Source of the DNA: Escherichia coli
GTDB lineage: Bacteria > Pseudomonadota > Gammaproteobacteria > Enterobacterales > Enterobacteriaceae
Strand: one strand, 5' to 3'
Length of the DNA stretch: 1,692 nucleotides
NCBI RefSeq assembly: GCF_003334815.1
Contig: NZ_QOWO01000097.1
This document shows positions 1-1,692 of the stretch, piece after piece. Position 1 is the first letter of the stretch. Each line of letters opens with the position of its first letter. A program made the position numbers and the translations under genes. The notes beneath the pieces are model-generated. The model saw only the letters and a program-made list of their open reading frames with translations. It had not been told where the DNA came from and did no database searches.

Positions 1-23
1 GAAAAACGAGTATTTTTAGTCAT
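1..23 (-). CDS. IS3-family transposase OrfA, 5' partial (first 7 codons, M-T-K-N-T-R-F), continues beyond the window
   Basis: ATG at 23..21 on the minus strand, preceded by GAGG (Shine-Dalgarno-like) in the IS leader. Mirrors the partial CDS at 1673..1692. Confidence 0.7.
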
Positions 24-77
24 CCTGTTTACCTCTTTCTCAGGAAGTTTAGTCTCCAGGATTCCCGGGGCGGTTCA
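1..77 (-). mobile_element. IS3-family (IS629/IS1203-like) left terminus: terminal inverted repeat plus leader and start of orfA; element extends leftward out of the window
   Basis: Minus strand reads TGAACCGCCCCGGGAATCCTGGAGACTAAACTTCCTGAGAAAGAGGTAAACAGG-ATGACTAAAAATACTCGTTT, which I recognise as the IS629/IS1203 left end (IS3-family TG...CA terminus; OrfA begins MTKNTRF). Positions 4-77 are the perfect reverse complement of 1619-1692. Identification is from memory, not a database search. Confidence 0.8.
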
Positions 78-467
78 GCGCCACTGATGCAGTCACTGTA
101 TGACTGGATACAGACTCAGATGAAAACACTGTCGCGTCACTCGGATACGGCAAAAGCGTTCGCATACCTGCTGAAACAGTGGGAGGCCCTGAACGTGTAC
201 TGCAGTAATGGCTGGGTGGAAATCGACAACAACATCGCAGAGAACGCCTTACGGGGTGTGGCCGTGGGCCGGAAAAACTGGCTGTTCGCAGGTTCCGACA
301 GCGGTGGCGAACATGCGGCGGTGTTGTACTCGCTGATCGGCACATGCCGTCTGAACAATGTGGAGCCAGAAAAATGGCTGCGCTACGTCATTGAACATAT
401 CCAGGACTGGCCGGCAAACCGGGTACGCGATCTGTTGCCCTGGAAAGTTGATCTGAGCTCTCAGTAA
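78..467 (+). pseudogene. IS66-family transposase (TnpC-like), 3' fragment of about 129 codons, 5'-truncated at the IS629 junction
   Basis: Translation ...[84 protein letters not shown] carries the hallmark C-terminal motifs of IS66-family transposases ([28 protein letters not shown]). The frame stays open leftward to the IS629 end at 77/78, so the gene has lost its 5' part. TAA stop at 465-467. The Met at 87 used by the ORF track is internal, not a real start. Confidence 0.85.
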
Positions 468-469
468 AT

Positions 470-497
470 ATCAATACGGTTCTGGTGAGCCGCTTAC
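470..497 (+). mobile_element. Probable right terminal inverted repeat of the IS66-family element
   Basis: Sequence ...GGTGAGCCGCTTAC ends at 497, about 30 bp after the transposase stop. IS66-family termini are 5'-GTAAGCG...; on this strand the right end should read ...CGCTTAC-3'. The inner boundary of the repeat is not determinable without the left end. Confidence 0.55.
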
Positions 498-592
498 GCT
501 GAAATTTACACCAGATAAAAAACATACAGAAACAATCCTGTTATGTAAAATCCGGAAAAAATGTCAGAAATGTGATCAGAGTTGTGTTTTAC

Positions 593-749
593 GGAGGGGA
601 GTGCACTGCGCACGGACTAATCGGAACCTATCGGCTGAGCGATATCGATCCGGAAGCGTATCTGCCTCATATACTGAGAGTTTTGCCGGAATGGCCTTCC
701 AACCTGTTGATGAACTACCTCCATGGAACGTAGTGCTCACCAATAAATA
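593..749 (+). pseudogene. Second IS66-family transposase 3' relic, frameshifted
   Basis: One frame gives GGECTAHGLIGTYRLSDIDPEAYLPHILRVLPEWPSN, paralleling [39 protein letters not shown] in the first fragment. After about position 703 the homology continues only in the +1 frame (PVDELPPWNVVLTNK*, TAA at 747-749), paralleling [15 protein letters not shown]. This implies a 1-bp deletion. No clean ...CGCTTAC terminus follows. Confidence 0.6.
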
Positions 750-791
750 AGCGTCATGCCTAACTTAAAGTAAATAGAATAGCAGATATGC

Positions 792-1319
792 TTAATCCTT
801 TTTGTTGAGTGTCACTGGACCATAGACCATAAAAACACAAGTTGAACCAGATACTCCCCTATAACCTCCCTGTCCATCGCCGAGATAACAGGCAAGAGCA
901 GTAAATTCCCAGGCATCATCCATAGACGCAGCAATTTTGCGTGTGGTTAGTGTTTCTTTGCCATATTGCTCACCAAAGTCGTGCACGCGCCGGGCATATT
1001 CTCCAAGTGACTCGCTGACTGACGGATGGTCCCACCCCCATAACCAGGTGCTGTCTTCAGTATCGTAAGTGCCAACCACTTGAACAGGTGCTGTGACCAT
1101 GATCTCTTTTTCATCATTGGTGAAGGTGATTGTACCTGTATTAAGATCAACATCCCACGCAGCAGTATCAAGTCCCCACATTTCTATAGCGGCTTGTGTG
1201 AGTAACTGCATTTCGTTATTCGCTCGTGCAATTGTGAGATCTGGCTCTGAAAGAATTGCTGTGTTAGCACTGGAATCTTTATTCTTTCTGCCAAAAAGCT
1301 TCTTGAATAAATTAGTCAT
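792..1319 (-). CDS. Hypothetical protein, 175 aa, family not recognised; predicted soluble
   Basis: Uninterrupted minus-strand ORF. ATG at 1319..1317 is preceded by GGGAGAG with about 5-7 nt spacing. TAA stop at 794..792. The ORF track's 192-aa version begins at an upstream TTG (1370..1368) with no Shine-Dalgarno, so the ATG start is preferred. Protein: MTNLFKKLFGRKNKDSS...WDVDLNTGTITFTNDEKEIMVTAPVQVVGTYDTEDSTWLWGWDHPSV...DDAWEFTALACYLGDGQGGYRGVSGSTCVFMVYGPVTLNKKD. No long hydrophobic segment (no transmembrane helix or signal peptide evident). Confidence 0.75.
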   Translation of the reverse strand: MTNLFKKLFGRKNKDSSANTAILSEPDLTIARANNEMQLLTQAAIEMWGLDTAAWDVDLNTGTITFTNDEKEIMVTAPVQVVGTYDTEDSTWLWGWDHPSVSESLGEYARRVHDFGEQYGKETLTTRKIAASMDDAWEFTALACYLGDGQGGYRGVSGSTCVFMVYGPVTLNKKD

Positions 1320-1324
1320 TCCTA

Positions 1325-1331
1325 CTCTCCC
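1325..1331 (-). promoter_or_regulatory. Shine-Dalgarno sequence (GGGAGAG) for the 175-aa CDS
   Basis: Minus strand ...AACGGGAGAGTAGGA-ATG. Purine-rich GGAG core 5-7 nt upstream of the start codon. Confidence 0.6.
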
Positions 1332-1397
1332 GTTTTCTGCAAACACTTTGGCTGAATTATTAACGTTCAAATTTTGTCAGACATGTGTATACCCTAA

Positions 1398-1414
1398 CCT
1401 GACATCAGGCCTGA
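1398..1414. promoter_or_regulatory. Nested dyad symmetry upstream of the 175-aa gene; candidate operator or promoter-associated site
   Basis: CCTGA(1398-1402)-CA-TCAGG(1405-1409)-CCTGA(1410-1414). TCAGGCCTGA at 1405-1414 is a perfect 10-bp palindrome. Lies about 80-95 nt upstream of the ATG in an AT-rich region. A -35-like TTGAAC (minus strand, 1370..1365) and a -10-like AATAAT are nearby but not at canonical spacing. Confidence 0.3.
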
Positions 1415-1618
1415 TAATGAAAAACTATCAGAATAAAATCGTCATGAGTATTTATTGAGACAAGTAATTAAAGGTCATAGATTCATTTATGACATATTCA
1501 GGCGTGATAGCGGCATCGTGGTAGTGACTCAGTCCTTTAAACCCGCAATATAAAACGAAAAAACAGACCGTTTTTCAGAAGATTAGCGCATTTATTGAGA
1601 AGTTTAAAGGCGTGGGAG

Positions 1619-1692
1619 TGAACCGCCCCGGGAATCCTGGAGACTAAACTTCCTGAGAAAGAGGTAAACAGGATGACTAAAAATACTCGTTT
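1619..1692 (+). mobile_element. IS3-family (IS629/IS1203-like) left terminus: terminal inverted repeat plus leader and start of orfA; element extends rightward out of the window
   Basis: TGAACCGCCCCGGGAATCCTGGAGACTAAACTTCCTGAGAAAGAGGTAAACAGGATGACTAAAAATACTCGTTT. Exact reverse complement of window positions 4-77. Confidence 0.8.
1673..1692 (+). CDS. IS3-family transposase OrfA, 5' partial (M-T-K-N-T-R...), continues beyond the window
   Basis: ATG at 1673-1675, 54 nt inside the IS terminus, preceded by GAGG. Same codons as the left-hand copy. Confidence 0.7.

Follow-up and report, generated by a model that had tools for sequence, protein, structure and literature searches.

A composite-transposon-like pair of IS629 elements in Escherichia coli: very probably two independent insertions nested in an older IS66-bounded transposon

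Composite transposons of the Tn5 and Tn10 type are built from two inverted copies of one insertion sequence (IS) around a short cargo, and this is the arrangement suggested by the 1,692-nucleotide stretch of Escherichia coli DNA considered here (contig NZ_QOWO01000097.1, the whole of which we call the window), in which two inverted ends of the IS3-family element IS629 flank an interior of 1,541 bp. The likeness goes little further. Tn5 and Tn10 move by cut-and-paste, have one target-site duplication around the whole unit, and are met in many contexts; IS629, in contrast, moves by copy-out-paste-in, and at this locus each IS has a duplication of its own, the cargo is native, and a single plasmid lineage is involved. 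A precedent for IS629-type elements around a cargo is Tn3411, a transposon for citrate utilisation with IS3411 on both sides. In Tn3411 the IS copies are directly repeated and transposition has been shown, whereas the IS629 copies described here are inverted and give no sign of movement as a unit. Tn6330 (ISApl1-mcr-1-ISApl1) illustrates that an IS with circular intermediates can form a working compound transposon; however, a characteristic 2-bp duplication encloses Tn6330 as a whole and its transposition has been demonstrated, and the IS629 pair shows neither feature.

Simple insertions of IS629 are the closer comparison. IS3411 is an isoform of IS629 (PMC3271280), as is IS1203, and in O157:H7 genomes IS629 duplicates 3–4 bp on insertion (PMC3271280). 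IS3-family elements move by copy-out-paste-in via a circular intermediate (reviewed in preprint 10.1101/2023.06.07.543989); therefore each insertion makes its own duplication and the donor copy stays where it was. The copies studied here share with such simple insertions a length of 1,310 bp, TG...CA ends, the orfA/orfB organization, and duplications of 3 and 4 bp—the sole oddity is the inverted placement of two identical copies with 1.5 kb between them, one of which sits within another IS. We conclude with high confidence that the locus records two independent simple insertions of IS629 into an older transposon bounded by IS66 elements, with the contig breaking in the repeats.

A search with the whole window returned a single record at 100% coverage and identity, NZ_LT985321.1, of which the window is an exact substring (1692/1692). 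This record is RCS85_pI, a 117.8-kb conjugative IncI1-type plasmid of E. coli ECOR 3. On it, the 1,541-bp interior has a complete IS629 copy of 1,310 bp on each side, with an annotated IS3-family transposase gene; one copy is the exact reverse complement of the other, and both IS629 left ends face the interior. Full-length copies on both sides, which the preliminary description of the window had proposed to look for, are thus present, and at least in the finished record the interior is physically linked to both.

The duplications carry the argument. The left IS629 has a 3-bp target-site duplication, GCG, with its inner copy at window positions 78–80 and its outer copy just beyond the IS (L004 8765–8767 in RCS85_pI), so that the plasmid reads ...GCCAGAGCT GCG / IS / GCG CCACTG.... 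The right IS629 has a 4-bp duplication, GGAG, with its inner copy at window positions 1615–1618 and its outer copy again just beyond the IS (L004 12929–12932), reading ...GGCGTG GGAG / IS / GGAG GGCATC.... The outer junctions in RCS85_pI are ...GCCAGAGCTGCG / TGAACCGCCCCGGGTTTCC on the 5' side of tnpC, the transposase gene of the IS66-family element that the left copy interrupts, and GGAAACCCGGGGCGGTTCA / GGAGGGCATC on the side of lutC. Both duplications are of the size described for IS629, and each pairs the two flanks of one IS copy.

The empty sites were rebuilt in silico by deleting each IS629 together with one copy of its repeat, and 40-mers across the healed sites were compared with other plasmids. 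Both healed-site 40-mers are present exactly in three of them: CP123239 (IncF), CP024481 (IncI1), and CP043827. Healed RCS85_pI and its IncI1 sister CP024481 are colinear over 13.5 kb at 99.86% identity, with a trbABC-hok backbone common to both. The wider comparison, which addressed a further suggestion of the preliminary description—to look for the cargo with and without the flanking IS—found one plasmid with both IS629 copies and six without. In all six of the latter (CP123239, CP024481, CP043827, JBSQGZ010000003, CP057464, and CP057972) the 1,541-bp interior is uninterrupted, with no IS629 at either site, an intact or frameshifted tnpC on one side, and lutC on the other. The outer flanks and the interior are colinear with these IS629-free plasmids; the cargo was therefore at the site before IS629 arrived. 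The preliminary description had listed two independent insertions among its alternatives, and that alternative is the one favoured by a separate duplication at each copy and by exact empty sites in three plasmids.

That the arms of the window are IS629 ends is well supported. Window positions 4–77 and 1619–1692 form a perfect 74-nt inverted repeat, as had been reported earlier and as is confirmed by reading the sequence directly; the chance expectation of such a repeat in 1.7 kb is about 1e-38 by our own arithmetic. Window positions 1–77, on the minus strand, are the reverse complement of IS positions 1–77 and comprise the left inverted repeat, the leader, and the first 23 nt of orfA (start codon at 23–21), while positions 1619–1692, on the plus strand, are IS positions 1–74, with the left inverted repeat, the leader, and the first 20 nt of orfA (start codon at 1673). 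Both arms start TGAACCGCCCCGGGAATCCTGGAGAC, with an ATG at 1673 (+) and its mirror at 23 (-). In both, orfA reads outward, in agreement with the annotated coding sequence (CDS) ends in NZ_LT985321.1.

The earlier assignment of the arms to inverted IS629/IS1203-like left ends with outward-reading orfA also holds for the element as a whole. The complete 1,310-bp element matches annotations of "insertion sequence: IS3 family IS629" in Shiga toxin (Stx) phage records at 99.5% identity, with 1,310/1,310 bp covered. OrfA corresponds to positions 1–86 and OrfB to positions 98–369 (E 4.6e-92) of the NCBIfam IS3 transposase model NF033516. In RCS85_pI the IS629 transposase is annotated as a single 1,214-nt IS3 family transposase CDS, and a finished-genome match to the 77-nt end falls under the Prokaryotic Genome Annotation Pipeline (PGAP) feature "IS3-like element IS629 family transposase". 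Near-identity over about 1,310 bp, IS3-type orfA plus orfB, and a 3–4 bp duplication for each copy together place the element in IS629. The copy at L004 11619–12928 matches, at 100% across its 1,310 bp, an element inserted in AF017626.1, the int-region record of phage 21 from E. coli EC38, and reaches just 99.5% identity with the O157-type Stx phage copies.

A repeat scan reported slightly longer inverted arms, 4–84 and 1612–1692, of 81 nt with 96% complementarity. The 7 nt inward of the perfect 74-nt arms are flanking DNA (GCGCCAC and CTCCCAC) and match at CCAC only; the scanned arms reach 81 nt because the two flanks share this motif. CCAC is thus common to the DNA beside both IS629 left ends (window 78–84 and 1612–1618), at +4 to +7 from the IS end. 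The shared motif may have arisen by chance or reflect a weak target preference of IS629; a published survey describes IS629 as without target preference (PMC3271280).

Several points weigh against two independent insertions and should be set out before the alternatives. Duplications of 3–4 bp can match by chance, with a joint probability of about 1 in 16,000 by our own arithmetic; because the empty-site reconstruction is exact, a chance match is not needed as an explanation. No intermediate with a single IS629 was found between the record matching at 100% and the IS-free records at 91%. The window itself holds the inner junctions only, the outer junctions and full copies being drawn from one public plasmid record, and a perfect match of NZ_LT985321.1 to the window cannot prove that the window came from that strain. 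Had NZ_LT985321.1 been assembled from short reads only, these could not have settled which way a 1.5-kb segment bounded by 1.3-kb inverted repeats points. Even so, the four junction sequences imply two separate insertions whichever way the interior points.

The most obvious competing explanation is a composite (compound) transposon, in which the 1.5-kb cargo moved to this site in one piece with the two inverted IS629 copies, via the outer IS ends. The finished plasmid does have two identical, intact, inverted copies bracketing the cargo 1,541 bp apart, and compound transposons made by copy-out-paste-in elements exist, as Tn6330 with ISApl1 demonstrates (preprint 10.1101/2023.06.07.543989). Nevertheless, the outer flanks, GCG and GGAG, are not a shared duplication, each pairing instead with the inner flank of its own copy, and the outer DNA and cargo are colinear with six IS629-free plasmids, as expected of a cargo native to its site. 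The junctions occur in one of about 93,000 finished records—neither was found elsewhere in 72,556 plasmids beyond that record, nor in 20,395 E. coli records—and the module is seen in no second context. An exact search of a metagenome collection with both inner junctions gave no match, so that no metagenome contig there has either of them; the left inner junction, the only one scanned against species-representative genomes, is absent from these. On established knowledge of the family, extended to this case, both outer ends of such a unit would also be right ends, whereas a circle junction of the IS3 family normally pairs a left with a right end. The preliminary description, in raising a Tn5/Tn10-style composite that mobilised the enclosed gene, had itself named separate duplications at the two copies as evidence against it, and separate GCG and GGAG duplications are what RCS85_pI has; we regard movement as a unit as extremely improbable. 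An IS-mediated inversion, which had also been proposed, is very unlikely in our judgement. It could take the form of a flip by recombination between the inverted copies, or of an intramolecular replicative transposition that created the second copy. Inverted 1.3-kb repeats can indeed recombine and flip what lies between them, and a flip leaves the inner junctions unchanged, so the window alone is compatible with a flipped state in its source. In RCS85_pI, however, the interior keeps the orientation that it has in the six IS-free plasmids relative to both outer flanks, and each IS629 has a direct matched duplication, with no swapped or reverse-complemented halves. Intramolecular replicative transposition as the source of the second copy would invert the segment and split the duplications, and neither is seen. 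Inversion is excluded for the finished plasmid RCS85_pI only.

It could also be argued that the contig merely ends in a repeat and that the segment is not truly beside two IS629 copies. Both window ends do lie in a multi-copy repeat: of 5,426 finished E. coli genomes, 3,553 contain the IS629 left end, in a median of 3 places each and up to 50, which makes it typical of the repeats at which short-read contigs break. The arms stop after 77 and 74 nt, and both terminal 77-mers are compatible with an assembly graph of k=77. The left end is exactly 77 nt of pure IS, and the right is 74 nt of IS, or a 77-mer when the adjoining GAG is counted; at least 25 finished genomes have the 77-mer of GAG plus the 74-nt IS629 left end at other, unrelated loci. 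A second GAG/IS629 junction in the source genome would make both ends terminal 77-mers of a k=77 de Bruijn graph. The window probably stops inside the IS copies because a short-read assembler cannot extend through a high-copy repeat. A contig break of this kind explains where the window stops, but not what lies beyond it; the junction reads put an IS629 left end on each side, and the perfectly matching finished plasmid has two complete copies. The caution voiced in the preliminary description was sound as to the ends, which fit a break in high-copy IS629, and the linkage it doubted is real in RCS85_pI. An assembly artefact is hardly credible as the whole explanation.

On our reading, the window very probably derives from an IncI1-type plasmid in the RCS85_pI lineage (E. 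coli ECOR 3) that was struck twice by IS629. One copy landed in tnpC of a resident ISCro1-like IS66 element, duplicating GCG, and the other, pointing the opposite way, entered the DUF6882-lutC spacer at a distance of 1,541 bp, duplicating GGAG. The IS629-cargo-IS629 arrangement formed in place, acquiring a composite-like look without arriving as a unit. The second copy may have come by a local hop from the first, or both may have come from the same (chromosomal) donor; a shared origin is suggested by their identical sequence and by the lack of further IS629 termini in the roughly 97% of RCS85_pI that was examined. We consider it very unlikely that the resulting 4,161-bp IS629-DUF6882-IS629 module is now mobile via its two outer right ends, or that it flip-flops by recombination and so alters expression of the DUF6882 gene or the downstream lactate-utilisation operon.

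Within the interior, window positions 78–497 (plus strand) are the 3'-terminal 420 bp of a 2,704-bp ISCro1-like IS66-family element, comprising the C-terminal end of tnpC, with its stop codon at 465–467, and the right terminal repeat. The tnpC end matches NF033517 with an E value of 1.6e-38 over profile positions 284–386 of 387, and the left IS629 severs it from the remainder of the gene. The right terminal repeat, whose reverse complement is GTAAGCGGCTCACCAGAACCGTATTGA..., ends at 497, and matches of the remaining interior to chromosomes start directly after it, at 498. Positions 572–733 (plus strand) encode the relic C-terminus of a different IS66-family transposase, annotated in RefSeq as "transposase domain-containing protein" and 38% identical over 45 residues to the ISCro1-like TnpC.

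The DUF6882 gene, at 792–1319 on the minus strand, encodes 175 residues (PF21813, E 1.2e-33); no other gene between the IS629 pair is intact. The right IS629 lies in the DUF6882-lutC spacer, 5' of the DUF6882 gene and 3' of lutC. The start codon assigned to the gene varies by record, at 1319 for 175 residues (WP_000182867.1) or at 1346 for 184 residues (WP_001312357.1), and the longest version given by the open-reading-frame finder starts at a TTG at 1370 and has 192 residues. A search for the function of the protein gave no NCBIfam match, no PADLOC match, and no significant sequence match in the PDB (best E 0.085). The DUF6882 gene and the relic IS66 fragment recur at 99.8–100% identity in many diverse E. 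coli chromosomes (window 601–1525; 498–1618 in two chromosomes). The cargo now on the plasmid was probably picked up from a locus on a chromosome.

Beyond the window, the interior belongs to a larger block of 11,397 bp that contains the ISCro1-like element, the DUF6882 gene, lutCBA, an L-lactate permease gene, and a second, different IS66-family element. This unit, which lies mostly outside the window, is 99.6–99.8% identical across three plasmid backbones, where sequence comparison places it at L010 7898–19294, L008 3717–15112, and L009 3718–15113 (reverse complement). In the IncF plasmid pMB7355_2 it spans GTAAGCG... to ...CGCTTAC, with a perfect 8-bp direct repeat, TATTCCAC, on either side, and an 800-nt empty site made in silico with one TATTCCAC copy is 100% identical to, and contiguous in, many IncF plasmids. 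Judged from these sequences, the 11.4-kb unit looks like a genuine composite transposon that inserted as a unit; unlike the IS629 pair, its ends are of the IS66 family and not IS629, and the IS629 pair was added later inside it. We found no literature on an IS66-bounded lactate transposon.

The two IS66 elements differ among plasmids in the state of their tnpC genes. That of the ISCro1-like element is intact in CP123239, JBSQGZ010000003, CP057464, and CP057972, and frameshifted in CP024481 and CP043827 (L002 4819–6389; L003 4820–6390). That of the second IS66 element is annotated as frameshifted in all three of the sister records checked (CP024481, CP043827, and CP123239; L008 13537–15071), and the ECOR 3 gene table, which omits pseudogenes, lists no tnpC for the right IS66 element. 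Because the left tnpC is broken by IS629 and the right one is frameshifted in the sisters, the unit is probably unable to move by itself in RCS85_pI.

On the IncI1 and p3RM8082 backbones the unit lacks the 8-bp duplication and, at its right end, directly adjoins a truncated IS66 transposase gene (L008 15105–15446; L009 12058–12399). In p3RM8082, hok/mok/sok modules stand on both sides of the unit (L009 11565–11991 and 24089–24515), and the two Hok proteins share one accession. These features suggest that the unit on the IncI1 and p3RM8082 backbones was gained by recombination or duplication rather than by simple transposition. The RCS85_pI record also has a Tn21-like region (L011 1–22800) with a class 1 integron carrying aadA1, qacEdelta1, and sul1, together with a mer operon and tet(A); we judge this notable for a strain of the old ECOR collection.

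The IS629 arrangement is ordinary plasmid IS traffic, already in the public annotated record, and its lesson is practical: when an inverted pair of IS copies is found around a gene, the target-site duplications and IS-free sister plasmids should be checked before the structure is called a composite transposon. The more interesting object is the 11.4-kb unit in which the pair is nested—a possible route for the spread of lutABC and the lactate permease gene among IncI and IncF plasmids.

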